A stretch of DNA of 17,031 bases from Nitrospinota bacterium (GCA_030754595.1 JASLZZ010000018.1:1-17031), one strand, 5' to 3'. Shown: positions 143 through 17,031, counted from the first letter of the stretch. Numbers and translations: made by a program. The notes: generated from the letters alone by a model not told the origin.

Positions 143-433
143 TTAGGCCTCCTTGAACAGCGGAGCCGCCTCGCCCAGGACCTCGCGAGAGAGATAACAT
201 CTGCCGTCCCGGGAGTGACCCGGCCGGGCGATTACGACCTCGAAATCCCATCCCTCTCCTTCCGCCCCGGCCTCGCCGTCCGCGCCGGCCGCCTTGCGGA
301 GAAGCCCTCCCCGCAAGCGGAGTTGAATGGGCCCAGCCATCGGCTCGGCGCCGCCAATAGGCTCATGCCCGGGCGCGGCTCCAACCGCCCGGCCGCTTCG
401 TCCCGCCCGCCACCTCGTCAACAGGTTCCTCAC
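143..433 (-). pseudogene. Truncated phage head maturation protease/scaffold-like protein (N-terminal fragment)
   Basis: GTG start with strong RBS AAAGGAGG. WDFEVVIARPGHSRDGRCYLSREVLGEAAPLF resembles the N-terminal 'W.V.II..G.S.NG.YY..EVL..AAPLF' pattern of phage prohead protease-like proteins. The frame stops right after this motif, where the sequence turns AT-rich. Confidence 0.55.
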
Positions 434-510
434 TCGCTGTCCTCCTTTCGCGCCCGGACCGTTTCAAAACCCTCCCGCGCGGGGCGGGCGCCCGCCGCGC
501 GACGAGAGGG

Positions 511-564
511 AATGTAGATCGAAAGGGGAAAAGACCCGATTCAGGAAATGCGGGGTATTTCGCG
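511..564 (-). promoter_or_regulatory. Shared promoter-like motif, copy 1 (-10-like TACATT plus upstream GAAATRC-N3-GYATTTC dyad)
   Basis: + strand AATGTAG (511-517) and GGAAAT (544-549), offset 33 nt; same offset at 5022/5055 and 12009/12042. Confidence 0.6.
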
Positions 565-685
565 GAACGCGGAAAAAAACGAGGATCACAGGGATATCAC
601 AGGTCATGGCCCGCTTGTCAGGCGCGGGACTCATGGGCGACGATGGCTGGAGAACAACCGAAATCAATCCGGGGGGCGGAGCGTC

Positions 686-1945
686 ATGGGGTCGGTCATC
701 GATTGGCTGGGCGAGATTCCCTGGAACCACCTGATCGATATTTCCGTCATGTGGTTCATCAGCTACCAGGTCTACATGCGCTTTCGCGGGACGCAGGCGA
801 TGCGCCTGCTGGTCCGCGTGTTCATCGTCTGGCTCGCCTATCTGACGGCCCAGGTCGCGGGCCTGACGCTCACCTCGTTTCTTCTATGGGCGCTCTGGAT
901 CGCGGTGCTCATCTTTTTTCTCATCACCTTCCAGGCGGAGATTCAACGAATTCTGATGCGCATCAACCCGATGCGCCCGCTGGGCGCGATCCTGCGCCAG
1001 GCGCGCAGCGTCCGCCTCCCCGACGAGACGCTCTCCGCCGTTTCCGAAACCGCCTTTTCGCTCGCCTCGAAAAACACCGGGGCCATCATCATCTGGGAGC
1101 GTCGCGACCCGATCGAGCCGCTGATGAGAAGCGCCGGCGAAGTGATCGACGCCGAGGTGCGGCCGGCGCTGCTTGAAACGCTTTTCGTTGTGGGCGCCCC
1201 CTACCACGACGGCGCGCTCTATATTAAGGAGGAGAAAATCTACCGTGCGGGTTGCGTCCTGCCACTCTCAGAGAATCCCGAGCTCGCCGCCCACTACGGT
1301 ACGCGCCACCGCGCCGCGGCCGGGCTCACCGAGCGCTCCGACGCGCTGGCCCTGGTCGTCTCCGAGGAGCGGGGGGAGGTGTCCACCTCAGAGCACGGCG
1401 AGATCGCGGACACCGAGTCTCCCGAGGCGTTGACCGCCTGGCTGACCGAGCGGCTGCGCGGCGCGGAGGACTCGCCCCAAACTTCCCCCCAGCTCGCGCA
1501 GGAAGTTGTCCGCCATAACTGGCGGATCAAGCTGGCCGCGCTGGCCGGGGTGATTCTCCTCTGGGCGGTCGCCATCAAGCAAAAGGAGAGCCCCCGGAAC
1601 ATCTTCGCCACCCTCGGGCCGGGGGTGGAGCAGGGCTTCACGGTGCCCGTCGATTACTACAACCTGCCCAAGGGGCTCCAGCTTGCCCCCGAGCGGACGA
1701 AACGGGTGCACATCCGGATAAAGGGAGAAGCCGACCTGATGAATTTCATCGACGCCGGGAGGCTCCGGATCAGGATCAATCTTCGCGGCGCCGGGGCCGG
1801 CCCCGCCGAGCACACCATCTCCACCCGCGACATCGACCTTCCCTCGCGGATTCACCTCGTGGGCGCCGAACCCTCGGGGATCCGCCTGCGCCTGGAAAAA
1901 ACGGCGAAGACAGCCGACGCGAACCCCCCTGGCGGGAAGCCCTGA
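686..1945 (+). CDS. cdaA: Diadenylate cyclase (CdaA/DacA, DAC domain) fused to a C-terminal TM segment and YbbR/CdaR-like domain
   Basis: Three N-terminal TM helices, FQAEIQR, catalytic HDGA and GTRHRAA motifs, VVSEERGEVS; then 'NWRIKLAALAGVILLW' and a YbbR-like 'VPVDYYNLPKGLQL...' region. Start placed at ATG 686 after GGAG. Confidence 0.92.
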   Translation: MGSVIDWLGEIPWNHLIDISVMWFISYQVYMRFRGTQAMRLLVRVFIVWLAYLTAQVAGLTLTSFLLWALWIAVLIFFLITFQAEIQRILMRINPMRPLGAILRQARSVRLPDETLSAVSETAFSLASKNTGAIIIWERRDPIEPLMRSAGEVIDAEVRPALLETLFVVGAPYHDGALYIKEEKIYRAGCVLPLSENPELAAHYGTRHRAAAGLTERSDALALVVSEERGEVSTSEHGEIADTESPEALTAWLTERLRGAEDSPQTSPQLAQEVVRHNWRIKLAALAGVILLWAVAIKQKESPRNIFATLGPGVEQGFTVPVDYYNLPKGLQLAPERTKRVHIRIKGEADLMNFIDAGRLRIRINLRGAGAGPAEHTISTRDIDLPSRIHLVGAEPSGIRLRLEKTAKTADANPPGGKP

Positions 1946-2189
1946 AAATATTTTCCGAAAAAAGATTTAAAGATGTGAAATGTCCATTAAAGATTTCGCG
2001 GCTGCTAATTATTATCGGGCGATTTCTATTGAAACATCGGAGAGCGGGACCTATTTTTTTTTTATGGAGGGATAAACGAGCCCTGAATTTTCATGGCCGG
2101 CAAGGCCGGCCGGCACCCGGCACTGGCCGGGGGGTGGAGCGCAGGGGCAGTTGCTCCAAGGGCGATCGTTACTTCATCTTGGAGGGCTT

Positions 2190-2391
2190 TTATGGATCGA
2201 CAAAGAAATCGAGTACTTCAAGTGCAGTGGCATCGCTTCCCGATCACGTGCGTCAGCTGATCGGGGAGACACCTGAACCGCTGACGCAACGATGCGGACG
2301 GCTATCCGCCCACTACGGCCAACGGGGAAATTCTCCCCGGCCGCAAAGAGAAAAGAGCAAATCGAGCGGGGTGCGATGCCCCGCTCTTTTT
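2190..2391 (+). ncRNA. Candidate structured RNA unit 1 (pseudoknot, CUAU hairpin, terminator)
   Basis: 11-bp stem 2236-2246/2258-2268 whose loop (2249-2257) is complementary to 2280-2288; 3' half similar to 2783-2892. Confidence 0.4.
2364..2391 (+). terminator. Rho-independent terminator
   Basis: GAGCGGGG-loop-CCCCGCTC followed by TTTTT. Confidence 0.75.
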
Positions 2392-2547
2392 ATGCGCGCG
2401 CATTCAAACACTTCCGGTGAATATCGCGGGGCCGCCCCAAAAAACCATTGCCGGATCCCGGCCGGGGACACATATTTTTCTCGTGGCCGGTAATAAGGGG
2501 TTAGGAGCGGCCCCGGCCAACGCGCTCCGGTCTATTTCACTCCAATC

Positions 2548-2892
2548 GGAAGGAGCCGATGAGAGAGCCCAAATAGATGAGCTCTCGGGCGAGGTCCAGC
2601 GCCGCCTCACCGGAGAGCAACGACCGCGGGCAGGCGCACTGATGTAGCGGGCAAAAAAATCCGCCCGTTATCTGGAAGGAGCCGATGCATTCAGGCAAGA
2701 CTTCGAAGTTCCCCGGAGCAGTTAGCGCCGATCTTCCGGGGGACAAACACCAGCTATTCGGCGCACTGATACACCAATAAAACGAGCGGCTATCCGCTCG
2801 GCGCGGCCCTCCCGAAAAGGTTCCCAAACGGAGCCAGGCGGCCGAAAGACGAAGAGAGCATAAAGGCGGGGTGTGATGCCCCGCCTTTTTTT
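2548..2892 (+). ncRNA. Candidate structured RNA units 2 and 3 (tandem ~96-nt repeats plus hairpins and terminator)
   Basis: GGAAGGAGCCGATG...AGCGCCG...GGCGCACTGAT repeated at 2548-2643 and 2674-2770, with different but base-pairing stems at equivalent positions. Confidence 0.4.
2862..2892 (+). terminator. Rho-independent terminator, paralogous to 2364-2391
   Basis: AGGCGGGG-loop-CCCCGCCT followed by a T-run. Confidence 0.78.
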
Positions 2893-2975
2893 GAGCGCGG
2901 AAGAAAGCTACCATCCGAAAGAATCCATAAATCACATCAAGCCGGACCGCCCCAGACTCCCATAAAGGCGCGCGA

Positions 2976-3974
2976 ATGAAACAAGGTCTCGTACTCACCC
3001 CGCCCGATCCGGCGACCCTCGCCGAATGGGCCCGCCTCGCCGAGACCCACGGCTTTGGCGCCATCTGGGTGACCGATTCGCAATCCCTCTACCGGGAAGT
3101 GTTCGCTTCGCTCGGTGTCTGCCTCGGGCAAACGAGCCGGATCGTCTGCGGCCCCTGCGTGATCAACCCCCTGACACGCCACCCGGCGGTGGCCGCGAGC
3201 GCGATCGCCACCCTCTCGGAGGCGCACGGCGGGCGCGTGGTCCTGGGCGTGGGGAGCGGGGACAGCGCGGTCCTCAACCTGGGGCTCGGGCCCGCGAAAG
3301 TGGCCGAAGTGCGCGAGTACATACTCGCCCTTCGCGGGCTCCTTGAGGAAGGGGAAGCCGAGTGGCGGGGGCGCCGCTGCATCCTGACCTGGTTCCGGCG
3401 CCGCGTTCCGCTCTACCTCGCCGCCGAGGGGCCCCGCATGCTCCGCCTCGCCGGGGAGGTCGCCGACGGCGTCATCGTCGGATCGGGGCTCGTCCCAGAG
3501 ATGGTCCGCGATTCAAGACGGCTGATCGAGGAAGGCGCCCGCGCGGCGGGCCGCGACCCCGGCGAGATCGATCTGTGGTGGATGGTCAAGGTCCATGTTC
3601 ACCCGGACGGCGAGCGGGCCCGCGAGGAGATCCGCGCCGGCATCGCCGGGAGCGCCCACCACGTCTTCAACTTCACGCTGGCGGGAAAGCACGTCCCGGC
3701 CGGGATGGAGGAACCGATCCTCAAGCTTCGCCGACGCTATGTGTTCAGCGAACACGCGATGGCGCAAAAGGAGACGAACGCCGCGCTCGTCGACGAACTC
3801 GGGCTGCGCGATTTCCTGCTCGACCGTTTCGCCGTCGCGGGGACGCCCGAGGAGTGCCGGGCGCGGCTCGGCGAGCTCGAGGCGATGGGAATCAAAAATA
3901 TCCGCCTCACGGCGCACGTTCCCGACCGGCCCGCCTTCATCCGCCTCTGGAGCGAGAAGGTCATGGGCGGCTAG
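2976..3974 (+). CDS. LLM-class (luciferase-like) flavin/F420-dependent oxidoreductase, Mer-like
   Basis: AETHGFGAIWVTDSQ, VINPLTRHPAVAASAIATL, GRVVLGVGSGD, LYLAAEGPRMLRLAGEVADGVI, AGTPEEC. Confidence 0.9.
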   Translation: MKQGLVLTPPDPATLAEWARLAETHGFGAIWVTDSQSLYREVFASLGVCLGQTSRIVCGPCVINPLTRHPAVAASAIATLSEAHGGRVVLGVGSGDSAVLNLGLGPAKVAEVREYILALRGLLEEGEAEWRGRRCILTWFRRRVPLYLAAEGPRMLRLAGEVADGVIVGSGLVPEMVRDSRRLIEEGARAAGRDPGEIDLWWMVKVHVHPDGERAREEIRAGIAGSAHHVFNFTLAGKHVPAGMEEPILKLRRRYVFSEHAMAQKETNAALVDELGLRDFLLDRFAVAGTPEECRARLGELEAMGIKNIRLTAHVPDRPAFIRLWSEKVMGG

Positions 3975-4163
3975 CCGCACACCTCCGCCAGCCGATCTCC
4001 GCCCTTAATAGCGCGGCGGGGACACCCTCTGACGGACTCGCCTTATATGTTGTCCTTATGTAAGGAAAACATCCTACCAGACACTCCGGATGTTATTCTT
4101 TTTCCCGGAATCCCATTAAAATAAAACCCACCGCCCCTAGCGCCATCAACCACCGAGGACCGA

Positions 4164-4634
4164 ATGAGAATTCGCCCAAGGGCCGCCGCACTGGCCGCAG
4201 CGCTTATCCTGGCTTCGCTCCCGGCTTCCGCGGCCGCCGCGCCGGGAAAGGACGGGGCGCGGATGGTCCTCGTTCCCGAGAGCGCGTTTCACATGGGCAC
4301 CTCCGGGGCCGACATCAAGCGCCTCCAGCGCACCTGCCCCTCCTGCCGGGCGGATCGCTTCGACACCGAGACCCCCCACCGCCTCGTCCAGCCCCACGCC
4401 TTTTATATCGACAAGTACCCGGTCACTGTCCGGCTGTTTCGCCGCTTCGCCGAGGAGACCGGGTGGCGCACGCTGGCCGAAAAAGAGGGCTGGGGGTGGG
4501 TTCTCTCGGGCGGAAAGGCCGAGAACCTCGGGTTCCGGATGGCCGTCCGGATGCGGGTGTCCCCGAAGCGGTTGGCGAAATCCTGGTCGGGCAAAAAATA
4601 CCCCACGTTCAGGCGGCGAATCCGGACGCAGTAA
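4164..4634 (+). pseudogene. Truncated formylglycine-generating enzyme (FGE-sulfatase/SUMF1) family protein with signal peptide
   Basis: MVLVPESAFHMGT...ETPHRLV...FYIDKYPVTV..FRRFAEETGWRTLAE is the FGE N-terminal pattern. Similarity ends near 4520; the remaining codons are antisense terminase sequence. Confidence 0.75.
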
Positions 4635-4945
4635 AGGGCGAGACCGATGGCCACCGTCGTCATGCCGATCTGCGTCCCCTTGAGGACGCTCACCGTCCGC
4701 TCGGGAAGGCTCAGCCGGAGAATTTCGCTCAGATGACCCACCACCTCGCGAAGAGCCTCCCGGCTCGTGAATCTGTACCGGCCGCCCTCCACCCCGATAT
4801 CGCTCTCGAGGAACACACTCAACTGAGGCGCGACCCGGGAGCGGACCCTTCGCCCACCCGATATGACCTCCTGGTGGTGCCGCTCGGCCCGCAGCCCGAC
4901 TATTCTCCCTCTCCACCCCGGAGCAGACGTCCCCATCTCCCGCAT
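4520..4945 (-). pseudogene. Phage terminase large subunit (lambda GpA-type), N-terminal ATPase fragment
   Basis: VSVLKGTQIGMTT (GpA-type Walker A, K.x.Q.G.T) and VGYFLPDQDFANRFGDTRIRTAI; GAGGAG RBS. The open frame continues to 4403 only as antisense of the FGE fragment. Confidence 0.75.
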
Positions 4946-4948
4946 CTC

Positions 4949-5009
4949 CTCATTTCACCGGACGCCCGCCGCAGGCGCCTCATTTCGGCCGGACGCCCGC
5001 CGCGGGCGC
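4949..5009. repeat. Imperfect tandem duplication (~30 bp) in the terminase leader
   Basis: CTCATTTCACCGGACGCCCGCCGCAGGCGC followed by CTCATTTCGGCCGGACGCCCGCCGCGGGCGC. Confidence 0.8.
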
Positions 5010-5021
5010 TCCGGGAGGGAA

Positions 5022-5072
5022 AATATAGAGCCTCGGGAGCGATTTCAGGCGTCAGGAAATTCAAGGATTAAG
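5022..5072 (-). promoter_or_regulatory. Shared promoter-like motif, copy 2 (-10-like TATATT)
   Basis: + strand AATATAG (5022-5028) and CAGGAAAT (GGAAAT 5055-5060), offset 33 nt. Confidence 0.55.
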
Positions 5073-5141
5073 GAAGTTTTTGTCGGAATTCACTCTATTC
5101 CCCGGGGACGTAACCTGCTCGAAATATTTACGTGCTAATGA

Positions 5142-5579
<438 letters not shown>

Positions 5580-5637
5580 ATCGCCATACCGAAATTCAAC
5601 TTTTCCGGCCACCAACACCCTTGAGGAGGGGGGAAAC

Positions 5638-6942
5638 GTGGAAAATAAAATTCGCAGGACCGTATGGACCGCCCTGTTATTGTTAACGGCCGTCTCTTTT
5701 TGGCCCTCGCTCGCCGCGGCGGCCGAGGCGAAGCTGAACGGAGGCAACACGGCCTGGCTCCTGACCTCGACCGCTCTCGTGCTGTTCATGACGATACCGG
5801 GGCTGGCCCTTTTCTACGGCGGCCTCGTCCGGTCGAAGAACGTCCTCTCGGTTTTGATGCAGTGCTTCTCGATCACCTGCCTCGTCTCCATCCTTTGGCT
5901 CGTCTACGCCTACAGCCTCGCCTTCTCCGACGGCAACGCCTTCGTCGGGGGCCTCGGGAAGGCCTTCTTTAGAGGCGTGAGCTTCGGCTCGATGACCGGG
6001 AATATCCCCGAGACGGTCTTCGCCATGTTCCAGCTCACCTTCGCCATCATCACCCCCGCGCTCATCGTCGGCGCCTTCGCCGAGCGCATGAAGTTTTCGG
6101 CCGTGTTCCTCTTCACGGGCCTGTGGGTGACTATCGTTTACGCCCCCGTCGCCCACTGGGTATGGGGCGGCGGCTGGCTCGGCGCGATAGGCGCCCTCGA
6201 CTTCGCGGGCGGCACCGTCGTCCACATCAACTCGGGCGTCAGCGCCCTCGTCTGCGCCGTCATTCTCGGCAAGCGGCACGGCTTCCCCGAACAGCCGCCC
6301 TCGCCGCATAACCTCACCATGACCGTCACCGGCGCCTCGATGCTCTGGGTCGGCTGGTTCGGCTTCAACGCGGGCTCGGCCCTCGCCGCCGACGGCGCCG
6401 CCGGCATGGCCATGCTCGTCACCCACATGTCCTCGGCCGCCGCCGCGCTCACCTGGATGTTCATCGAGTGGAGCAAGTTCGGCAAACCCAGCGCCCTGGG
6501 GATCGCGACCGGCGCCGTCGCCGGCCTCGTCGGCATCACCCCGGCCTCGGGCTTCGTCGGCCCGATCGGCGGCCTCGTCATCGGGGTCGCGACCGGCTTC
6601 CTCTGCTTCAACGCCGTGGGCATCATCAAGCAAAAGCTCAAGATCGACGACTCGCTCGACGTCTTTCCGGTCCACGGGATCGGCGGAATGGTGGGCGCCC
6701 TCCTGACGGGCGTCTTCGTCTCCTCGGGCCTTGGCGGCGCCGGCCTCGCCGATGGCGTCAGCATGGGCTCGCAGGTGGGGATCCAGTTCGTCAGCATCAT
6801 CGCCACCACGGTCTACGCCGGCGCCGGCTCGTTCGTCATCCTCAAGGTGGTGGACGCCCTCGTCGGCCTCCGGGCCAGCGCCGAGGACGAGCAGGTCGGC
6901 CTCGACCCCAGCCAGCACAACGAAACCGGCTACGAGATCTGA
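5638..6942 (+). CDS. amtB: Ammonium transporter AmtB
   Basis: GLALFYGGLVRSKN, FQLTFAIIT, DFAGGTVVHINSG, WFGFNAGS, DDSLDVFPVHG; N-terminal signal peptide. Confidence 0.97.
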   Translation: MENKIRRTVWTALLLLTAVSFWPSLAAAAEAKLNGGNTAWLLTSTALVLFMTIPGLALFYGGLVRSKNVLSVLMQCFSITCLVSILWLVYAYSLAFSDGNAFVGGLGKAFFRGVSFGSMTGNIPETVFAMFQLTFAIITPALIVGAFAERMKFSAVFLFTGLWVTIVYAPVAHWVWGGGWLGAIGALDFAGGTVVHINSGVSALVCAVILGKRHGFPEQPPSPHNLTMTVTGASMLWVGWFGFNAGSALAADGAAGMAMLVTHMSSAAAALTWMFIEWSKFGKPSALGIATGAVAGLVGITPASGFVGPIGGLVIGVATGFLCFNAVGIIKQKLKIDDSLDVFPVHGIGGMVGALLTGVFVSSGLGGAGLADGVSMGSQVGIQFVSIIATTVYAGAGSFVILKVVDALVGLRASAEDEQVGLDPSQHNETGYEI

Positions 6943-6959
6943 TCCCAAGACCTCACCCG

Positions 6960-6999
6960 AAAAGCGCCGGCCCCCAACGCGGGGGCCGGCGCTTTTTTT
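6960..6999 (+). terminator. Rho-independent terminator after amtB
   Basis: AAAAGCGCCGGCCCCC-loop-GGGGGCCGGCGCTTTTTTT. Confidence 0.9.
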
Positions 7000-7084
7000 G
7001 TGGCTTTCCACCCGGCCCCGCTCCCAATATAATCATTCTCGAATTCCATGAAAATTTTCAGACTTCCCAAAGGAAAACCGCGCC

Positions 7085-8008
7085 ATGAGAAAAGAGGTCG
7101 AGTTCCGCAGCAAGGGGGAAACCTGCCGGGGTTGGCTCTATACGCCCGACGGGAAGGAGGGGCCCTTTCCGCTGGTCGTCATGGCCGGGGGGTGGTGCTA
7201 CGTCCGGGAGCTCGTCATGCCCCACTACGCGGAATTCTTCACCCGGGCGGGGATGGCGGCGCTGCTTTTCGACTACCGCTGCCTCGGGGTGAGCGACGGG
7301 GAGCCGAGACAGCATCTGGACCCGAACGCCCAGATCGAGGACTACCGGAACGCCATCAGCTTCGCCGAGGGATTGTCCGTGGTGGACCCGGACCGGATCG
7401 GCGCCTGGGGGATATCCTACAGCGGCGGGCACGTCCTTATCCTCGCGGCAACGGACCCGCGCGTGAAGTGCATCGTCTCGACCATTCCCGTCGTCGAGGG
7501 TTATCGGAACATGCGGCGGGTGCACGGGACGATGGGGTTCCGCAGGCTCATGGACGCCGTTTTAGAGGACCGGAAGGCGCGCTACCGGGACGAGGGCGCC
7601 CGGGGCTATATCCCCCACGCCGCGCCCGACCCGGAGCGGACCCTCTCGAGCTGGCCCTTCCCCGAGACCTACGAAACCTTCATCCAGCTCAAGGAGACCG
7701 AAGCGCCCCTTTATCAGAATTCGAGCACGATCGAATCCGTCGAGCTTTTGATGAACTACAGCGTCCACCCGTTCCTGCCCCGTATTCTCGACACCCCATC
7801 GCTCGTCCTCGTGGCCGAGGGGGACGACCTCACCCTCTGGGACCTCGAGATCGACGCCTACAACCGGATTCCGTCGGCGAAGAAAAAACTCTTCATCATC
7901 CCCCAAACTTCCCACATGACGCTCTATAGCGATCGCTCTAAACTCGAGATCGCTGCCGGGCAGGCGACGAAGTGGCTGGCCGATCACCTGGTCAAGCCTT
8001 CCGGATGA
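7085..8008 (+). CDS. Alpha/beta hydrolase (peptidase S15/CocE-like fold)
   Basis: FDYRCLGVSDGEPRQ, VDPDRIGAWGISYSGG nucleophile elbow, candidate Asp (EGDDLT) and His (TSHM). Confidence 0.9.
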   Translation: MRKEVEFRSKGETCRGWLYTPDGKEGPFPLVVMAGGWCYVRELVMPHYAEFFTRAGMAALLFDYRCLGVSDGEPRQHLDPNAQIEDYRNAISFAEGLSVVDPDRIGAWGISYSGGHVLILAATDPRVKCIVSTIPVVEGYRNMRRVHGTMGFRRLMDAVLEDRKARYRDEGARGYIPHAAPDPERTLSSWPFPETYETFIQLKETEAPLYQNSSTIESVELLMNYSVHPFLPRILDTPSLVLVAEGDDLTLWDLEIDAYNRIPSAKKKLFIIPQTSHMTLYSDRSKLEIAAGQATKWLADHLVKPSG

Positions 8009-8128
8009 TTCGAGTCCGGCGATTTTTCCTCCCGCCGTTGTGAAACCGGCCCGCCTCCATTTAGAATAAGAGCCACTTTCACCCGGATAATTCCACCAAC
8101 CGGCGCGGCTCTTGTGCGCCGTATATGA

Positions 8129-8338
8129 GGAGACCGCCGCGGCTTCAACACCGCCATCGGCGTCGGCTCCAGCGTTAGCGGGGGAGAGGGCAACACCACC
8201 AGCGGCAGCGGCTCCAGCGTGAGCGGGGGGCAGTACAACACCGCCAGCGGCTTCATCTCCAGCGTGAGCGAGGGAAAGAACAGAACCACAACAAGCGATC
8301 ATGACTGGGCCGCCGGAGCCCTATGGGAAGACTATTAG
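8129..8338 (+). pseudogene. C-terminal remnant of an NTASG..SSVSGG repeat (YadA-head-like beta-roll) surface protein
   Basis: Frame reads FNTAIGVGSSVSGGEG-NTTSGSGSSVSGGQY-NTASGFISSVSEGKN...DHDWAAGALWEDY*; 45-bp/15-aa period; in-frame TGA at 8126-8128 upstream; apparent start of the gene missing. Confidence 0.7.
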
Positions 8339-8367
8339 CCATGACTATCTTTACTCGCTAGACCGCA

Positions 8368-8407
8368 CCGCCCTCCGGTTTCCGCAAGAGACCGGGGGGC
8401 GGTTTTT
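8368..8407 (+). terminator. Rho-independent terminator
   Basis: CCGCCCTCCGGTTT-loop-AGACCGGGGGGCGG followed by TTTTT. Confidence 0.8.
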
Positions 8408-8637
8408 GTCTTGGGGGCTGGGTAGACGCCCCAACCAGCAAAACCCTTCGTTCCTATCGGAACGACCTCCCAAGTTGGCGATTCTCCCCGACCGCCGTAC
8501 AATGACCTTCATCATTTCCCACCGGAGCTATCGCTCCCAGCGGACGGCTTTTTAAGCGCGCGGCGCGGCATGGTCGCCGTGGAGATCGAAATGCCGTCTG
8601 GCAGGATCGGTTATCTGTCTGACAGGAGAGATTAAGC

Positions 8638-9213
8638 GTGAAAATCCTCGTCGCCGGAGCCAACGGGAACACGGGTTTTCGGCTGGTGCGGCTGTTGTCC
8701 GGGGCGAGCAAGGACACGCGCGCCATGATCAGGGACCCGGCCCAGGCCGGGCGGATGGAGGGAGCCGGGGCCGAGGTGATCACAGCCGACCTCGAGGGCG
8801 ATGCCGGGAACAACATCGCCCGGGCCGTCGAGGGCTGCGGAGCGGTCATGTTCGCGGCGGGCGGGGGCCGGGGGAGCGGCCCCGAAAAAAAGGAGAGCGT
8901 CGATCACATGGGCGCGGTCAGGCTCATCGAGGCGGCCGAGGCGGCGGGCGCCCGGCGGTTCGTCCTCCTCAGCTCGATCCGGGTCGATTATCCGGCGAAC
9001 TGGCCCGAACACTTGAGGGCCTACCTCGTCGCCAAGGAAAAATCCGACCGCCGGCTCCTCGCCAGCGATCTCGACTACACCATCGTGCGGCCCGGCCGCT
9101 TGACGGACGATCCCGGCGGTGGACACGTCGCCGCGGCGCGGAGCGATGCCGCGGGGCGGAGCCATGAAGGCCGGGGCGGCGAGATCGCCCGCGACGACGT
9201 GGCGGCGATATGA
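8638..9213 (+). CDS. Atypical SDR, NAD(P)H-binding (NAD_binding_10/YhfK-like), probably C-terminally truncated
   Basis: ILVAGANGNTG Rossmann motif, FAAGGG, YLVAK, DYTIVRPGRLTD; ends right after GEIARDDVAAI, where family members normally continue. Confidence 0.85.
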   Translation: MKILVAGANGNTGFRLVRLLSGASKDTRAMIRDPAQAGRMEGAGAEVITADLEGDAGNNIARAVEGCGAVMFAAGGGRGSGPEKKESVDHMGAVRLIEAAEAAGARRFVLLSSIRVDYPANWPEHLRAYLVAKEKSDRRLLASDLDYTIVRPGRLTDDPGGGHVAAARSDAAGRSHEGRGGEIARDDVAAI

Positions 9214-9635
9214 AAAAGAGCGCGGCGGCATTCATGGGCCAGATACTTCTGGTGTGGCTCGCCGCCGCGAGCTTCGCGGCGGCCTTGATCGCGCAGGCCC
9301 CCTTCGCCCCCTCCACCGGGGCGCAACCCTCCAGCGGACAGCAAACCACCTCTTCCCCCGCCGGAGAGAGCGGCGGGCAGAAACCGCCCGCCCCTGAAGG
9401 GCCCGGGCCGGAAGGCCGCTGGGTGCCCGGCCATCACTTCAGCATCAGCCAGGGCTGCCTCAAGAAATGGATATGCGACTGTTCAATGGTCGAGCCCCCG
9501 CGCGGCGCGCGGATCGAGCGGACCCCCTCAGAGTCGATCGCGGGCATCTGCCGGCCCGGCGCGCGCGGTTCGTGCACCGTGTGCACCGCCGGGGAGCCCG
9601 AAAAAAAATGCGCGTGTAAAACGAAAACCCGGTAG
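9210..9635 (+). CDS. Secreted hypothetical protein with Pro/Ser linker and 8-Cys C-terminal domain
   Basis: Signal-peptide-like N-terminus, ATGA overlap with the upstream stop, 8 Cys in the last ~60 aa. Confidence 0.6.
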   Translation: MKKSAAAFMGQILLVWLAAASFAAALIAQAPFAPSTGAQPSSGQQTTSSPAGESGGQKPPAPEGPGPEGRWVPGHHFSISQGCLKKWICDCSMVEPPRGARIERTPSESIAGICRPGARGSCTVCTAGEPEKKCACKTKTR

Positions 9636-9639
9636 GCCT

Positions 9640-10536
9640 CTACTCCGGTGCCTCGGCCGCGCCGAGAAGTACGCTCACCGCCGCCATGTCGAGGCCGCCG
9701 AGTCCGTCCCGCGACGCCATCCGGAATATCTGGTTCGCCGCCGCCCCGGTGGGGCACGGCAGCCCGAGCGCCATCAGCGAGGAGACGGCGAGCGACAAGT
9801 CCTTGAGCATCAGGTCAACCGTGAAACCCGCCTCGAAGCCCCGGTCCGCCGGGGAGCCCTCGACCAGCCCCGGGCAGGGCGGGTCCTTTTCCACCACCCA
9901 GCCGCCGCCGCTGCTCGTGCGGATGACCTCGTGGAGGATCTTCGGGTCCACCCCCGAAGCCTTGCCCATCGCGAAGGCCTCGGCCGCCGCCACCATCGTC
10001 ACCCCGACGATCAGGTTGTTGCAGAGCTTGGCCACCTGGCCCGCGCCGTGGTCCCCGACGCGGATGATGTTTTTCCCGATCTTCTCGAGGATGGGCCGCG
10101 CCCGCTCGAAGGCCTCCTCCGGCGCGCCCACCATGATCGTCAGGCTCGCCGCCTCGGCGCCCGACACCCCGCCCGAGACCGGTGCGTCGATCGCCACCGC
10201 TCCTCGGGCAGCCGCCGCCTCGGCCACCCGCCGGCTCGTCTCGGGCGCCACCGTCGAAAGGTCGATGAAAAGCTGCCCTTCGCTCGAGGCGTCGATGAGG
10301 CCGCCCTCGCCGAGATAGACCTCCTCCACCTCCGCGCCCGCCGGCAGCGAGGTCAGCACCGCCTCCGATGTCGCCGCCAGCTCGGCGGGCCCAGCCGCCC
10401 CGGCCGCCCCCGCCTCCACCGCGCGCGCCACCGCCCCGGCGCTCTTGTCCACCACTGAGACCTCGTGGCCCGCCCTCACCAGATGGGGCGCCATCCGGCC
10501 GCCCATCGCCCCCACGCCCACGAAACCGAGACGCAT
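9640..10536 (-). CDS. NAD-dependent beta-hydroxyacid dehydrogenase (3-hydroxyisobutyrate dehydrogenase/MmsB-like)
   Basis: GFVGVGAMG, DLSTV, DAPVSGG, GAGQVAKLCNN, FTVDLMLKDL; GGGAGG RBS. Confidence 0.93.
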   Translation of the reverse strand: MRLGFVGVGAMGGRMAPHLVRAGHEVSVVDKSAGAVARAVEAGAAGAAGPAELAATSEAVLTSLPAGAEVEEVYLGEGGLIDASSEGQLFIDLSTVAPETSRRVAEAAAARGAVAIDAPVSGGVSGAEAASLTIMVGAPEEAFERARPILEKIGKNIIRVGDHGAGQVAKLCNNLIVGVTMVAAAEAFAMGKASGVDPKILHEVIRTSSGGGWVVEKDPPCPGLVEGSPADRGFEAGFTVDLMLKDLSLAVSSLMALGLPCPTGAAANQIFRMASRDGLGGLDMAAVSVLLGAAEAPE

Positions 10537-10862
10537 TGCACCACCCTCCCATTAAAGTGGAAAAAAAATTCGTACCAAACCCGCAGGTGACGCGGACCGC
10601 AGGATTCGCGGGCCTGCGGAGGGCATACCCCTGCGGGGGGCATGCGGCCACGCCCACAGGGTTCACGCTCGTTCTGCAAGAGTTCATGCCGCCCTGCAAG
10701 GGCCGCCAGCGGCACACGCTTCCACCGCAGGTGGCGGCGGCGCGCCTCCCCGGGCGGGAAAGAGAAACACCAAAAATTCAGTGATTGTTTAAGGAGGTAT
10801 TTTGCCACAGGAAGGATGGGGTTGGGGGGTGGATTAGGAACCCGCCTCCTTCTTGAAAACCG

Positions 10863-10975
10863 TTATTTACAACCCTCCGGCCGATTATTGACAACCTTTC
10901 CGGCCCCTTTGGCCCGTTATTTACAACCTATCGTCGGTTTATTTACAACCTTTGGGGTGGTTCAGGTTGTAAATA
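10863..10975. repeat. Iteron-like cluster: four direct TTATT(T/G)ACAACC repeats plus one inverted copy
   Basis: Copies start at 10863, 10885, 10917 and 10939; inverted AGGTTGTAAATA at 10964-10975; AT-rich tract follows. Confidence 0.85.
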
Positions 10976-11418
10976 GAAGTATTTTCGATATATATTCGTT
11001 TTTTAGTGAGGTTTTGGGAGGATTTGGAAGGTAACAACTAGCCTCCGCCTGGTCTTTTTGCCACAACCTTGCACATCATGATTTCAATTAGGATACACAA
11101 ATATGTTGCCTGACTTTCCAATACTAAAAACCGGAATTATGCGGCAACGCTCTCCTTTTCGCAAAATACGGCCTTATTTTCCCTGTCGGCGGTACTTCCC
11201 GCCGAGAAGTCCAAAAAGTCCACAAAAAGATACCCTCTTGGGCACCTCTTCCATCCAGATCCACCGTAAATAAAGGGTTTTATCCGTTTTGGGGCGCAAT
11301 GCTCCTTTCTCCTCCTGACTCAACAACGCTTGCACACCCCGTATCAGCCATAGCCGGGCACAGCCCGGTAGTAATGGGCCAGAGGGAAGGCCGTGAATGA
11401 CGGATGTACGGCTTCGCG

Positions 11419-11805
11419 CTACTCCTCGGCGCTCCCGCCGCGCAGGGCGGCGATGCCCTCGTTGGCGCGGCGAAGCTCTGAAAAGACCTCGGCGAATGAC
11501 TTGCGGATGGCCTCGAGCTCTCGGGTGATGTCGTCCCGCCGGGCGTAGCGCAGATGAATCTCGTCGATGCGCCCCACGGCGCGGACGACGCGGCCCCTGA
11601 GCTCGGCCTCGGTGGCTTCGAACTGCCGCCGGAGGGTGGCGCCGACCTGCTCGACCCGGCCCCGGAGCTCGTTGTAGATGATCCGGCCCAGCACCCCGGC
11701 GAGGGTGAGGGCCAGGGCGAGTGCGCCCCAGGAGGCAACGCCCCAAGCGGCGGCGCCCACCCAGGGGGCGGCGCCCTCAAAATCAGGTGTCCAGCCGGAA
11801 AGCAT
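11419..11805 (-). CDS. Phage-like small membrane-anchored coiled-coil protein
   Basis: GGGAG RBS before ATG 11805; one TM helix, then coiled coil with a 'YARRDDI' motif reminiscent of small phage late-region proteins. Confidence 0.6.
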   Translation of the reverse strand: MLSGWTPDFEGAAPWVGAAAWGVASWGALALALTLAGVLGRIIYNELRGRVEQVGATLRRQFEATEAELRGRVVRAVGRIDEIHLRYARRDDITRELEAIRKSFAEVFSELRRANEGIAALRGGSAEE

Positions 11806-11924
11806 TTTTTCTCCCGGTTCGGCCTTGCAGGCCAGCGAGGGCATGACATGCCGGGGCGCGGCCCCAAAAATCATCCCTCAAAAAATCGCCCTTCGAATTT
11901 ACTGGGAAGAGAGGCGCCTTCCCC

Positions 11925-11996
11925 GGAGGGTGGGCTTCCGAATGGGGTGGGCTCATCCCTGGAGGGTGGACTCCCGAATGGGGAGCACTTATCCCT
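11925..11996. repeat. Tandem 36-bp imperfect repeat (30/36 identical), each unit self-complementary
   Basis: GGAGGGTGGGCTTCCGAATGGGGTGGGCTCATCCCT followed by GGAGGGTGGACTCCCGAATGGGGAGCACTTATCCCT. Confidence 0.85.
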
Positions 11997-12008
11997 CCAC
12001 CGCACGAG

Positions 12009-12062
12009 AATGTAGGCGATTCGGGCGGAATCGCCCCCACCGGAAATGCCGGGAACTTCGCG
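12009..12062 (-). promoter_or_regulatory. Shared promoter-like motif, copy 3
   Basis: AATGTAG (12009-12015) and GGAAATGCCGGGAACTTCGCG (12042-12062), 18/21 identical to 544-564. Confidence 0.6.
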
Positions 12063-12222
12063 CTGGCTCCGCCAGCCGTGGTGGGCTCCCAAGCGGGAGC
12101 CTCCGGCCGGTTGGTGGGCTCCCGGCCCGGTGAGTCCCCCGGCGGGGGACTCTCTGGTATCGTGTCCGGAGAATTTTGGAGTGAAGGATTTTGAGAGAAA
12201 ATGGCTGAAAGGCGCGCGGGGC

Positions 12223-12681
12223 ATGACTAAAAAGACGGCGGCGGGTTTTCTGATGGCGGGCGGAGCTGCGCTGCTCGGAGCGGTCCTCCTCTGGACAACG
12301 GCGGCGGCGCACGGCTCGGGCGAGATCGAGATTTTCGCCTACCTGCTCGAGGAGCCGGGCTTTCTCAGGCTGACGGCGGGAATCCTGGGCGCGCTGATTT
12401 TCCTGCTGGGCGCTTTCATCGTCTGGCAGAGCGATCTGGTGTGGGGGGAGATGTCGGCGGCGGAGAAATCAGAAGAGGGGGGGGCGAAAGTCTCGCGGGC
12501 CCGGATGATGGCCCCCGGCGCGGCGTTCGCCCTCACCGGCGCGGCGATCATCCTCGCGGCGATATTCATCCTGCCCGACCGGGTGACTTCCAATGACCAC
12601 CCCGGCGGCGGCCATCAAAGCGGCGGGCCATCACGCGGAGCAAAAGCAAAAAGCGCCCTGACCCCGGAGGCGGGCCGCTAA
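12223..12681 (+). CDS. Hypothetical membrane protein (signal/TM segment plus two TM helices)
   Basis: Three hydrophobic segments and GC3-biased codons; start at ATG 12223 is inferred. Confidence 0.65.
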   Translation: MTKKTAAGFLMAGGAALLGAVLLWTTAAAHGSGEIEIFAYLLEEPGFLRLTAGILGALIFLLGAFIVWQSDLVWGEMSAAEKSEEGGAKVSRARMMAPGAAFALTGAAIILAAIFILPDRVTSNDHPGGGHQSGGPSRGAKAKSALTPEAGR

Positions 12682-13529: not shown

Positions 13530-13622
13530 CGGCACCTCGCTGCGGCGGGTTGTCCAGAAGCGAACCGGCCCTTATAACCCTCTCGCCTCAACTCCCCGGA
13601 GGGAAAACAGGCGCATCCGCTT

Positions 13623-14939
13623 CTAGTACTCGAACACGGTGGGGCCTTCCACCGCCTCGGCCAGCGCGCTGGCGGCGGCGCGGGCGGCGCCGAGGCGCCA
13701 TTCGCGCTCGGCCTCGGGCTCCCGCGAGGGGTCGCCGAAGGGGTGATGGAAGTGGCCGTCCCGGGTGTTGACGATGCGGTTCGCGCCGATGTCGCGCGCG
13801 ACGTTCGGCAGGCAGGTCACCACGACGGTGGGAATTCCCTCCCGCTCGAGAGCTCTGGCCAGCGCAGCCCCGCTGCGCGTGCCCGTCCCTCACGTGGCGG
13901 GGAGAACGGCCCCCGTGACGCCGGCGGCCTTGAGTTCCCCGGCCCAGGCGCGGCCGATCTCGTCCATCGTCTCGAAGGCGCCGCCGTTTCCGCAGGTGCT
14001 CAGAAAATCGTCGTGGAGCGCGGCGATCTCGCCCTCGCTCGCAAGGCGGCGGAAGGCGTCGACGGCGAGCATGCGGTCGGGCTCCTCGTTGACGAAAAGG
14101 GTGTTGAAGCCGCCGTGGATCGAGATGAAGCTGCCGCCCGGCAGGTCGTCTTTTCCGGCGAAGGAGTATTTGGCCCAGGCCCCGTTGCGCGATCCGGCGA
14201 AGCGGTCGGGGTTGTCGGGGGGGACCATGCCGCCCTCGGAGACGACGGCGATGACCGCGCTCTTGAGGTCGGCGACGGGCGCGGGAGGGGATATCTTCTC
14301 CAGCGCGGGGACCTCGAGCTCGGTCTCGTAGGGCTCGCCCTTGATCTTCTTGAGGACGAGATCGACGGCGCGCTGGGAGGTCGGAACCTCGGAAATTTCG
14401 TTGTAGCGGATCCCGCGCGGGAGATAGCCCTCCTCGGCGGCGGCCCCGACGGCCTCGCCCCGGGCGAGCTTGAGGCCGAGGCGGAGGGCGGCCTCGAAGG
14501 CTTCCTCCATCCCCGCGGCGGTTTCGGCGGCGGGGACGGTGTAGACGGTCCGCCCGGCGGCGGCGACGCCCGGATTCTCGGGATGCATCGCGGTGACGGC
14601 GGGAATCCCCGCTTCGGCGGCGGCCCGGCAGAGGGCGGCGCAGGCGAGCCCGTAGCGCCCGGCGTTGAAGGCGGGGCCCGCGACGATCAGGCCGGGGGCG
14701 AAGGCCTTGATCCGCTCCATCGCCTCGGCGGCGCAGCGCTCCTCGTTTTCGGCGAAAAGGCCGTCGCCGCAGTAGACCGTCCCCGCGACCTCGCCCTCCC
14801 CGCCCAGGATTTTATCGATGAGCAGACCGGGGCCCATGGGACCCTCCTTGGAGGAGAGGGGGTGATCGCTCTTCTCCTCGCCGCCGACGCCGGCGAAAAA
14901 CTGGTTGATGTAGTGCACGACCCTGATGTTTCCGCTCAT
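13623..14939 (-). CDS. grdB: Glycine/sarcosine/betaine reductase selenoprotein B (GrdB family), Sec at codon 350
   Basis: VVHYINQFFAGVGGEEK, AGPAFNAGRYG, HGGF. In-frame TGA at 13890-13892 is followed by GTGTRSGAALARALEREGIP...GANRIV...HPFGDP, matching the GrdB C-terminus. Confidence 0.93.
13862..13878 (-). promoter_or_regulatory. SECIS-like hairpin of grdB
   Basis: GCGCAGC-GGG-GCTGCGC beginning 11 nt after the UGA. Confidence 0.65.
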
Positions 14940-15100
14940 GACGCTTCCTCCGCTATTTGCTTTCCGGTTTCCGTGGCCGGGGCCTGAAGCCCCGCCAAAA
15001 CCGGTTGAGTATGATTACAAATCACCTGGAGCCGCCGCGAATCCGATCGAGCCCGGCCCGCCCGAACCAGTCCGAACGAACCAGTCCGAGCTTCCGCGGC

Positions 15101-16378
15101 CTAGTAGGCCTTTCCGATCATGCGGTTCAACTCCATCGCCCATTCGTTGGCATAGTAATCGCTGTCGGCCATCGTTAAGACCTCCTTGGCGTCCGTTTCC
15201 CTGCCGCCGTAGAGATTGACGACCCGCGAGCCGATCACCCGGTCGACGGCCGGGGCCTCGATCCGGTCGCCCTGCATGCCCTTGCTCACGATCGCGTCGG
15301 CCTCGGGGACATGGAAGACGAGCGGGAACTCGCCGGTCCCGGGCCGGCCGACCTCGTAGATGATGGGAACGGCCTTGACGCCCATCTGCTCGAGCGCCTG
15401 GACGGTGAGCCAGTAGTCCACCGTCGAGTTTCCTCCGCCCTCGAAGGAGAGAACGGCGCCGTCGGCGTCGAGGAGCCTGGCGATCTTGGCAACGTAGTGG
15501 GCCGAGCGCTCCTTTAAGGCCTGGTTGTCCCGGTGGCCGCGCGTGATGATCGTCCCCGCGAAGTTCAGATCGACGCCGTGGCGGCGGTAGAGCTCGTAGG
15601 CGAGCGGCATGTTGCAGTGAAGATAGGTGGGCACCTTCTGCTGGGTCTTGTAGTTGGCCCCCACGACGGCGCCGTCGAACATTTCGTTCGGGTGGATGGG
15701 CGTGGGAAGCGAGTCGTCCAGATCCTTGCCGTAGAGGAAGGTCTGGACCATCGACGCCTGGTGCATGACCTGATCGACGAAGACGAGGCGCGGAAGGGCG
15801 GGGTCCACCTCGCCCAGATCGAATACCTCGAGCCGGACGGGCTCGAGCCGCGCCGTGGACTCTGCCAACCTGGAAGCCAGCCGGAGGGTGGCGAGGCGCA
15901 CCGCATCGTCGTGCGCCTCGTTCGAGGCGCCTTCGAGCGGCTCGAACCGCGCGACGAGGTTCACCGTCTCGGAATTCGTGCAATACCTTCTGCCGGGGCC
16001 GATCATGTCGATGATCCCCTCGCGGTAGGTCATGATTCCCGTCATGGGCCCCAGGAACCAGGTCGAGCTGATCACGCACATCCCGGACAGCTTGTGGGTC
16101 CTCCCCTCGCCCGCGGTCTTCGCCGGGCCGAGGAAGCCCGGAAACGCGCACGAGCGCCCGCTGACCTTGTAGAGGGGCTCAACGGCGTCGAGGACATTCG
16201 TGATGCGCACCGAGTCGCCCGGCATGGCGGCGTGGAAGCTAACGTCCTTCACATCGCCTCCCGCCATCGCCACCCGGCGGAGGTCGGCGGCGTCCACCGT
16301 GAGAACCTCGTCCCGGTAGGCGAACCGGTCCCCCAGCACTACCTCCGAGACCGGAAAAATCCCCATTTCCAGGCGCAT
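15101..16378 (-). CDS. grdE: Glycine/sarcosine/betaine reductase component B proprotein (GrdE/GrdG/GrdI family)
   Basis: MRLEMG, PGDSVRI, FPGFLG...GEGRTH.L.G, EGIIDM.GPG, PTPIHPNEMFDGAVV, EGGGN; lies between grdA and grdB. Confidence 0.9.
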   Translation of the reverse strand: MRLEMGIFPVSEVVLGDRFAYRDEVLTVDAADLRRVAMAGGDVKDVSFHAAMPGDSVRITNVLDAVEPLYKVSGRSCAFPGFLGPAKTAGEGRTHKLSGMCVISSTWFLGPMTGIMTYREGIIDMIGPGRRYCTNSETVNLVARFEPLEGASNEAHDDAVRLATLRLASRLAESTARLEPVRLEVFDLGEVDPALPRLVFVDQVMHQASMVQTFLYGKDLDDSLPTPIHPNEMFDGAVVGANYKTQQKVPTYLHCNMPLAYELYRRHGVDLNFAGTIITRGHRDNQALKERSAHYVAKIARLLDADGAVLSFEGGGNSTVDYWLTVQALEQMGVKAVPIIYEVGRPGTGEFPLVFHVPEADAIVSKGMQGDRIEAPAVDRVIGSRVVNLYGGRETDAKEVLTMADSDYYANEWAMELNRMIGKAY

Positions 16379-16398
16379 CCGCTCCGCTCCTCCCTTCC

Positions 16399-16851
16399 TC
16401 AGCTCGCCGCGCGCAACTCGGCCAGATCGCTTTCGATCCGCGGCAGGTCGAGCACCATCTCCATCATCTGGAGCTTTTCGGCGTAAATGTCCTCGGGAAC
16501 ATGGTTCCGCACCCTCTCCTCGAGGATGTGGTACACGGGGAGTCCCAACGAGACTCCCGCCAAGGGCCCGGCCCAGCTGGGGTCCCCGGTCGTCAGCGTT
16601 TCGGCGGCGAGCCGAAGGCCTTCGCCGGGCATCCCAAGAACCACCACCAGATTATCCGCACCGACCTCATCAGCGATTTTCTTGATGGCGGCCTGGTTTT
16701 CCAGGTCCATGGCGCCTGCGGAGGTTCAGACAAAACACTCCGTCTTCTGGAAAACGACCTCCGCTCCCGCCGCCTCCATGCATTCGGCGATGGCCGGGCC
16801 CGGAACACCGTCCCGCTCGCCCAGCGCGATCACCTTTTTCCCTTTAAACAT
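16399..16851 (-). CDS. grdA: Reductase complex selenoprotein A (GrdA), Sec at codon 42
   Basis: [21 protein letters not shown]...[17 protein letters not shown]...[23 protein letters not shown] at 16726-16728; GGAGG RBS. Confidence 0.96.
16685..16710 (-). promoter_or_regulatory. SECIS-like hairpin of grdA
   Basis: ATGGA-CCTGG-AAAA-CCAGG-CCGCCAT, starting 15 nt after the UGA. Confidence 0.6.
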
Positions 16852-17031
16852 CAAAACCCTCCCGAACAATTTCGAATGAAAACAGACTATAGGGAACCTC
16901 TAAAAACCGCTTAACTTCCCCCGATTTTGTGTTATCGCAGCATTTTAGCCACAATTCATACCCATTTTCCATCTTATCCTCGGCCATCGGAACTCCGAAG
17001 AGCCTCCCGATGGCCAATTTTCCTCATGCGC

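Follow-up and report, generated by a model that had tools for sequence, protein, structure and literature searches.

Why should three minus-strand open reading frames (ORFs) of phage type, standing among ordinary host genes, each be preceded by the same sequence motif? The question arises on a 17,031-nt contig (C18; here 'the window', the whole stretch of DNA that was analysed) from a metagenome-assembled genome (MAG) of a Nitrospinota bacterium (G000; 138 contigs, 3.55 Mb, 96.9% complete), in which remnants of a capsid gene and of a terminase gene and an intact gene for a small coiled-coil protein follow sites of the pattern ATTTCCKG-N24-CTAYATT. A note made from the window sequence, the original prediction, took them for a candidate dispersed, co-regulated and phage-derived system resembling a gene transfer agent (GTA). 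On comparison with related genomes we consider it probable that a lineage-specific promoter heads a domesticated phage-derived gene set, most likely a host-controlled particle system of the GTA type, which in G000 itself is defunct. The comparison covered a family set of 41 genomes in nine genera (MAGs of marine bacteria, under records titled Nitrospinota, Nitrospinaceae, Candidatus Tectomicrobia or simply 'bacterium') and a wider related set of 61 genomes. The genus of the window (g1) comprises G000, G001, G002, G003 and G004; G010 is a complete genome of a different genus, and G035 and G015 belong to genus g8. At least 0.9 of the sampled window words were present in 12 of the 24 sequencing runs listed, all of them marine or seawater DNA runs, from seven studies.

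The shared motif and its architecture

Read on the plus strand as AATRTAG-N24-CMGGAAAT, the exact pattern occurs in the window at 511–549, 5022–5060 and 12009–12047, and the same three places are its only occurrences in the whole G000 genome; none of 200 dinucleotide-preserving shuffles contained any match, which confirms the three sites of the original prediction. Its distances from the −10-like box to the ORF start (78 nt, from 511 to 433, and 77 nt, from 5022 to 4945) were reproduced, and the offset between the two blocks is identical in all three sites as claimed, with the block starts lying 31 nt apart instead of the 33 nt given. The genes that separate the three ORFs are indeed those of the host (cdaA–ybbR, an LLM oxidoreductase, amt, an alpha/beta hydrolase, an NAD-binding protein and HIBADH). 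Copy 1 (511–549, minus strand; −10 box TACATT at 511–516, repeat unit GCATTTCCTG at 542–551, conserved flanks 496–584) heads the capsid remnant, copy 2 (5022–5060, minus strand; TATATT, GAATTTCCTG) the terminase remnant, and copy 3 (12009–12047, minus strand; TACATT, GCATTTCCGG) the coiled-coil gene, hereafter the coil gene. Sites orthologous to copy 1 head the capsid gene in G001 and G002 (L020, L015), those orthologous to copy 2 head the terminase gene terL in G001, G002, G005, G009 and G035, and orthologs of copy 3 were found in G001 and G010. A profile built from the aligned sites added two full copies (C21:11131–11201 and C126:21871–21933), so that G000 holds five full sites, all of which head phage-type or small uncharacterized ORFs 60–135 nt downstream; a strict expression for one unit plus the −10 box gave six matches in G000 and one in the reversed sequence.

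Conservation reaches beyond the motif as first defined, to a GRGAG just downstream of the CTAYATT box (minus strand) and to a second 10-bp repeat unit upstream of ATTTCC. Two or three 10-bp direct repeats (CGCATTTCC in g1, CGAATTTCC in G010 and CGCATTTGC in g8) stand 25–26 nt upstream of the hexamer alike in g1, G010 and g8, with centres near −42, −52 and sometimes −62 as counted from the −10 box. The left box of G010 reads TAGATT, TACATT, TAGGCT or TAGACT, its only constant positions being T1, A2 and T6, which is the behaviour of a sigma-70 −10 hexamer and marks it as a putative −10 box. Across 30 sites of G015 the spacers are unrelated, and an nAnnnT hexamer is held at 25–26 nt from the repeats. 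A plain sigma-70 −35/−10 scan misses all three window sites because they have no −35 hexamer. The sequence thus offers a TAnnnT −10 box, an upstream operator at fixed spacing and a gene that follows; given this box, the fixed-spacing repeats and the lack of a −35 hexamer, we read the element as an activator-dependent promoter. Because each of the three sites is flanked by divergent genes, the direction cannot be read from the window by itself; relatives reveal it, as genes on the minus side of orthologous sites belong to the same families and plus-side genes vary between genera. We infer a −35-less minus-strand promoter to which polymerase would be recruited through a putative repeat-bound protein: an activator that would bind the direct repeats beside RNA polymerase (or, less likely, the repeats would act as an UP-like element).

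The exact pattern was found in 10 of the 61 related genomes, all of one family, and the reversed control gave one match, in an unrelated genome; the profile matched 24 of the 41 family genomes and eight of the nine genera, and none of the four genomes of genus g4 has the motif. Downstream ORFs were inspected at 19 exact sites in relatives (L002–L020; site L001 of G031, which is without flanking conservation, had been left out beforehand). Fourteen of these sites head phage-derived genes (capsid, 4; terL, 5; coil gene, 3; first gene of the tail module, 2), as the original prediction expected of a scan through the genome and its relatives, and the other five are unassigned. Of 28 capsid loci, 21 have the two-unit motif with its −10 box upstream of the gene; the reversed controls have none, and four of the seven misses have at most 250 nt of upstream sequence. 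In both G035 and G015 the motif precedes terL, the capsid gene and a distant tail operon. In G010, 10–11 of 17 profile matches fall within a 40-kb phage-derived region, in one orientation and all in the direction of the genes, with copies directly upstream of the capsid, portal and terminase genes, a homolog of the coil gene, a peptidase M15-like gene and several small ORFs. Small paralogous ORFs of 60–130 aa, some starting with MDIETR and including a transmembrane segment, and several with a motif copy of their own, were observed in G010 (L025:12289–15925, minus strand) and in G000 on C126 (L024:5213–6360) and C21 (C21:11983–12156).

The phage-derived gene set of the family

Relatives of the 784-aa protease–capsid protein of G010 occur at 59–78% identity in 28 other species genomes, which with G010 gives 29 loci; the capsid match is one uninterrupted frame in 25 of them. 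The tail-tube gene follows the capsid gene in 24 of the 29 loci, a cupin gene comes next in 19 and the F420 gene cofE in 17, and several loci end earlier. Portal genes were found in 31 and the terminase ATPase ORF in 33 of the 41 family genomes, each at a single locus; the portal/terL locus lies in two or three broken pieces in G004, G008, G009, G010 and G029. The terminase large subunit of the family is encoded by two adjacent ORFs, an ATPase (about 352–374 aa; the frame is open for about 365 aa in most family genomes) and a nuclease (about 215 aa), with stop and start codons overlapping as ATGA in G035 (L058:10130–11832, minus strand) and as GTGA in G001 (L021:8833–10700, minus strand). The overlapping ORFs of G001 were at one point taken for a frameshift, an interpretation that was dropped in favour of the family's normal split ATPase and nuclease genes.

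The packaging, head and tail set of the relatives includes the split terminase, portal, protease–capsid, neck, tube and tape measure, and the shared promoter architecture is present at all units. In G035 the order is cofD–cofC–cofE–cupin, followed by a 140-aa ORF, the tube, a 177-aa ORF, the neck (phrog_5), a 271-aa ORF and the capsid; onward come about 10 kb occupied by host genes, HIBADH and LLM among them, and then portal, terminase nuclease, terminase ATPase, motif and amt. LLM and amt therefore flank the portal/terL genes and their motif in this g8 genome as they do in the window. A third operon carries the same promoter and comprises a phrog_8610-like gene, a tape-measure-like gene and four others; in four complete g8 genomes its distance from the head loci is 0.28–2.4 Mb. 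The loci are dispersed, as had been proposed, both through this distance and through the interleaving of the units with host genes. No integrase or replication gene was seen in the conserved units of G010 and G035, although many small ORFs there are without assignment.

Median ratios of nonsynonymous to synonymous substitution (dN/dS, Nei–Gojobori) were 0.175 for the capsid gene (25 sequences) and 0.162 for the tube gene (22), next to 0.103 for cupin and 0.144 for cofE among the host neighbours, and the proportion of synonymous differences (pS) was similar across genes (0.36–0.42). Capsid protein distances follow those of cofE across 16 genomes (r = 0.91), a correlation that none of 2,000 Mantel permutations reached. 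Antisense ORFs first called in the capsid–tube interval of G010, one of them with a dN/dS of 1.08, proved spurious and were replaced by calls from codon-position GC. Among 5.8 billion protein clusters, 35 contain capsid relatives at E values up to 1e-20; those with a named source are all from the clade, and many of the 35 sit on long chromosomal contigs. The best match from an isolated phage is 32% identical, and a scan of IMG/VR with capsid peptide patterns, a weak test limited to those patterns, found no relative. At the level of the family, then, the genes are vertically inherited and under purifying selection at fixed loci, and the full-length orthologs at conserved positions that the original prediction had pointed to exist. 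We conclude that an old, chromosomally fixed, selected and dispersed phage-derived gene set with a common promoter is present in this family. On the mechanism that we propose, the promoter would drive the split terminase and portal as one unit, the protease–capsid, neck and tail tube as a second, and the tail/tape-measure module as a third; the membrane/coiled-coil gene and, in G010, the peptidase M15-like gene would be further units.

Remnants and other features of the window

The system is defunct in G000. The capsid body, portal, terminase nuclease, tail tube and tail module were not found elsewhere in this genome by tblastn and whole-genome searches, and the phage-type genes that are left (the capsid stump, the terminase stump, the coil gene and a tail-chaperone-like gene) do not amount to a head, tail and packaging set. 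The decay that had been described as partial was thus understated: the capsid, portal, most of the terminase, tube and tail module were not found in the genome. What the window holds is three surviving promoters, two of them before gene stumps and one before an intact small gene.

The ORF at 143–433 (minus strand), seen initially as a protease-like fragment of a phage gene, has no family match of its own in profile searches and is, by comparison with G001, the start of a protease/scaffold/major-capsid fusion gene. It is an N-terminal remnant of 96 aa, with 60% identity to the start of the G001 protein. This counterpart (534 aa) matches phrog_29592 (E value 2e-65), Phage_capsid_4 (E value 1e-15) and families of head-maturation proteases and major head proteins; the stump, with the first 96 residues only, stops short of an HK97-type capsid domain. 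Homology to G001 ends at about 146, where a 140-nt multi-copy repeat begins (1–140, no strand assigned); three more copies in G000 are 99–100% identical, and contigs from other runs have loose ends at 140. The capsid gene is thus truncated at this repeat element.

The second remnant was confirmed as the N-terminal terminase fragment that had been placed at about 4520–4945. ORF 4403–4945 (minus strand) matches phrog_675 (E value 2.6e-11; profile positions 23–112 of 576) and, below threshold, Pfam GpA_ATPase (PF05876; E value 7e-4, 19.8 bits against a cut-off of 25.6). It lacks the full ATPase and nuclease, which the full-length G001 ortholog has; the part from 4517 to 4945 (minus strand) corresponds to residues 1–146 of the ATPase ORF of about 365 aa, and its left end is a deletion junction. 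At the same junction stops the remnant of an FGE-sulfatase-type gene (4164–4517, plus strand; residues 1–118 of about 300). Contig C153 of G001 aligns to window positions 147–4517 and 4517–7002 at 92–93% identity and holds an extra 3,407 bp at 4517, which supply the missing parts of the FGE-sulfatase gene and of the terminase, the nuclease ORF included, together with the portal gene (phrog_10963). The junction in the window is clean, with one G001 flank running straight into the other over one shared base, and is spanned by contigs of two other studies (X2, 4364–5645; X7, 3141–6359). Given these independent contigs and the presence of window words in other runs, the deletion is real. This 3.4-kb deletion fused the terminase and FGE stumps and removed the portal gene; the truncation in G002 is similar, not identical.

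The third gene (11419–11874, minus strand; likely start at 11805) is intact and encodes a protein with a single transmembrane segment and a coiled coil, with only weak family matches. The protein is 67–69% identical to its G010 homolog, which has the motif upstream. In a language-model comparison viral clusters are the nearest to it, with a score of 0.90 for a Mu-like 'releasin' family, which we treat as a lead only; the gene is of phage type and may have a lysis-related role. A repeat resembling a miniature inverted-repeat transposable element (MITE; 11125–11393, no strand assigned; at least 12 copies in G000) occupies the place of the next gene of the coil operon in G001 and G010. Single-protein queries with the coil protein and with a 485-aa G010 protein found neither in four g8 genomes. 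Contigs from RNA libraries of two metatranscriptomes cover neither the three ORFs nor their promoters to a usable extent (one 151-nt contig of depth 2 at 11606–11756) and are uninformative on expression. Four iteron-like direct repeats (TTATTTACAACC, at 22–32-nt spacing) lie at 10860–10953, where a low-GC spacer separates HIBADH from the coil gene.

The window has several other features. Stretches 1–140, 11125–11393 and 16890–17031 each hold part of a separate multi-copy repeat; G000 has 4 copies of the first, at least 12 of the second and at least 17 of the third. Over these stretches the depth of DNA words in other runs is higher, by up to 10 times, and the contig both begins and ends within a repeat. 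Three tandem 45-nt repeats (8146–8289) resemble many copies on the right part of C153 in G001. Farther rightward, 13588–16710 (minus strand) carries the glycine/sarcosine/betaine reductase genes grdB, grdE and grdA, of which grdB and grdA are each divided into two ORFs, the pattern expected where UGA codons for selenocysteine stand in frame. A candidate abundant non-coding RNA of about 350–400 nt lies between cdaA and the LLM gene (2496–2893, plus strand), where RNA-library contigs of two studies reach depths of 140.7 (2497–2842) and 20.4 (2496–2807), much higher than elsewhere in the window. The candidate closes with an intrinsic terminator, the stem–loop and T-run of which are near-identical (one or two base changes) in all five genomes of the genus, holds the motif GGAAGGAGCCGATG twice and has ten predicted pairs with compensatory changes and a plus-strand fold z-score of −2.7; it is single-copy in G000 and has no Rfam match at E values up to 1. 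A similar terminator at 2364–2386 and a promoter-like site at 2029–2057 suggest a possible tandem paralog at about 2065–2392 (plus strand). A search for tRNA and tmRNA genes in the window found none.

Competing explanations and known systems

Interpretation of the set as a domesticated phage-derived regulon, as proposed originally, is supported at the level of the family; the GTA label is a functional claim that goes beyond sequence. A bolder form of it, in which an undescribed and independently domesticated GTA, with units for head, packaging, tail and lysis dispersed between host genes, would extend over the whole family, one activator would act on 10-bp CGCATTT(C/G)C direct repeats 25–26 nt upstream of the −10 box and also drive a multi-copy element of about 600 nt found in g8, and the window would show loss under way, is possible and distinctly doubtful. 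Several points weigh against the domesticated-set reading: the promoter assignment is an argument from sequence logic, ORFs outside the window were called crudely, by a codon-position GC (GC3) score, and to these are added the non-phage targets in g8, the repeated loss in g1 and the integrase genes near loci in G001 and G035, all described below.

The most serious alternative, which we nevertheless regard as unlikely, is that the repeat array serves a broadly acting host regulator or makes an UP-like contact with polymerase, or else is a protein-binding array that a mobile repeat has spread, with phage-derived genes as a few among many targets. Genomes of g8 contain a 19-nt repeat core (at most two mismatches) 54–79 times each, with no match in the backwards control, and 34 profile matches were found in G004 of the window's own genus. 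Thirty of the 33 perfect sites of G015 were inspected: 4 head phage-derived units (capsid, terminase, tail operon and a tape-measure-like gene), 14 head the 600-nt element, 4 a second repeat class and 8 other genes, unrelated ones such as those for SDR and HbpS-like proteins among them. The element (L064–L092, for example L082:1440–2130) begins with a repeat-plus-hexamer promoter, precedes diverse host genes and ends in inverted copies of similar 10–11-bp units followed by another motif copy; no conserved Pfam domain was found in it. Given such non-phage targets, the binding factor is not dedicated to phage genes in g8, where the repeat units could be sites of a mobile-element protein, and the regulator may be a broader host or mobile-element factor instead of a dedicated GTA activator. 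G000, however, has just five sites, none before a recognisable housekeeping gene, and the G010 matches are concentrated in the phage-derived region and all gene-oriented; moreover, a broad regulator is compatible with the domesticated-set reading, as known GTAs are wired into host regulators.

That the motif is the late promoter of an ordinary decaying prophage, and the three ORFs strain-level debris without host function, seems to us improbable. The fragmentary window copies would fit such a prophage, as would the non-conserved integrase genes near loci in G001 and G035 and the pieces of insertion sequences and MITEs around the loci. So would repeated loss within g1, where, of the genes searched (capsid, portal, terminase ATPase and tail tube), G003 alone retains an intact set: in G001 the capsid is truncated and the portal contains stops, G000 and G002 carry deletions, and no capsid gene was found in G004. 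The terminase ATPase ORF of G010 is moreover split over two frames, whether truly or through long-read error, and together with the losses in g1 this means that selection is not universal. Intact single-copy orthologs nevertheless occupy the same chromosomal positions in several genera, with a dN/dS of about 0.17 and a synonymous divergence equal to that of host neighbours, and capsid distances track those of cofE. A prophage would equally leave unexplained why host genes are interleaved differently in each genus, each unit having its own promoter, and why the tail operon lies megabases away; the pattern-limited scan of IMG/VR, too, returned no relatives on viral contigs.

That the motif acts on the plus strand and serves cdaA, amt and the membrane-protein ORF 12046–12681 as a promoter, leader or operator is very improbable. 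A plus-strand element (leaderless ATG, structured RNA) had been the first reading and was dropped once relatives were compared. In its favour, each of the three sites occupies an intergenic region between divergent genes, the last letters of CAGGAAATG form an ATG at sites 1 and 3, and in G035, too, the gene on the plus side of the terL promoter is amt; against this, plus-side genes differ across genera and minus-side families are constant, the variable box is readable as TAnnnT on the minus strand only, and the cdaA family match begins about 60 residues past that ATG. A structured RNA element or an assembly artefact can practically be set aside: in some copies a hairpin can be drawn in the variable 24-nt spacer, but spacers are unrelated and pairing is inconsistent, an Rfam scan of the window at E values up to 1 gave four chance-level matches and none at the motif, and the arrangement, junction included, recurs in contigs of independent studies and in sister genomes.

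Having favoured a domesticated set under a lineage-specific promoter, we compared its parts with known systems. Class II activator-dependent sigma-70 promoters of the pho-box type have a good −10 box and direct repeats with helical periodicity that replace the −35 element and adjoin its position. The motif has the same layout, although here the centres at −42 and −52 are inferred from the −10 box and the protein on the repeats is putative. Among defective prophages and phage-like bacteriocins, the genes of PBSX of Bacillus subtilis form a single contiguous cluster that possesses a repressor and a sigma-like factor of its own and does not self-propagate; the likeness lies in chromosomally fixed, phage-derived particle genes, and the difference in the dispersal of the present set among host genes. 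Few independent origins of GTAs are known, and each has been informative on how a host tames a virus and wires it into its own regulation. In the literature searched (titles and the starts of abstracts), nothing tied GTAs to the Nitrospinota/Tectomicrobia clade. If the GTA reading is true, a candidate GTA in an uncultured marine clade would have been found from a promoter motif alone, and it would offer an operator that marks the regulon, an unusually fragmented gene layout and a natural series of losses within one genus. The motif would be a handle for finding the activator and for reading the regulon in related MAGs, and would also allow metatranscriptomes and virus-size-fraction metagenomes to probe particle-borne DNA exchange in abundant seawater bacteria.

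Published accounts of CcGTA of Caulobacter (with GafYZ) and BaGTA of Bartonella describe domesticated phage genes in several loci under one regulatory device (PMC11150451; 10.1101/2024.11.20.624540). Regulation in those systems works by anti-termination along long operons. By comparison, each short unit here has its own promoter copy; anti-terminator signatures were not searched for. Nearest among known systems is RcGTA of Rhodobacter capsulatus, for which one study reports that its activator GafA binds the promoters of the structural cluster, of gafA itself and of lysis genes, and that expression of the head-spike, tail-fibre, lysis and maturation genes rises together with that of the core cluster (PMC6363796). 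The analogy is one of host-kept phage head–tail genes, with accessory and lysis genes at loci apart from the structural cluster, that come on together in RcGTA and would do so here, where a GTA function is a well-motivated hypothesis. No relation to the RcGTA capsid or terminase was detected, no direct comparison having been made, and the best phage matches are at most 32% identical. The present set also differs in belonging to a different phylum, in a terminase divided between translationally coupled ORFs for the ATPase and the nuclease, and in head genes that are themselves divided into units among host genes; its operator consists of 10-bp direct repeats fixed 25–26 nt from the −10 box, and its activator is putative. 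What RcGTA and the set described here have in common is vertical inheritance under purifying selection.

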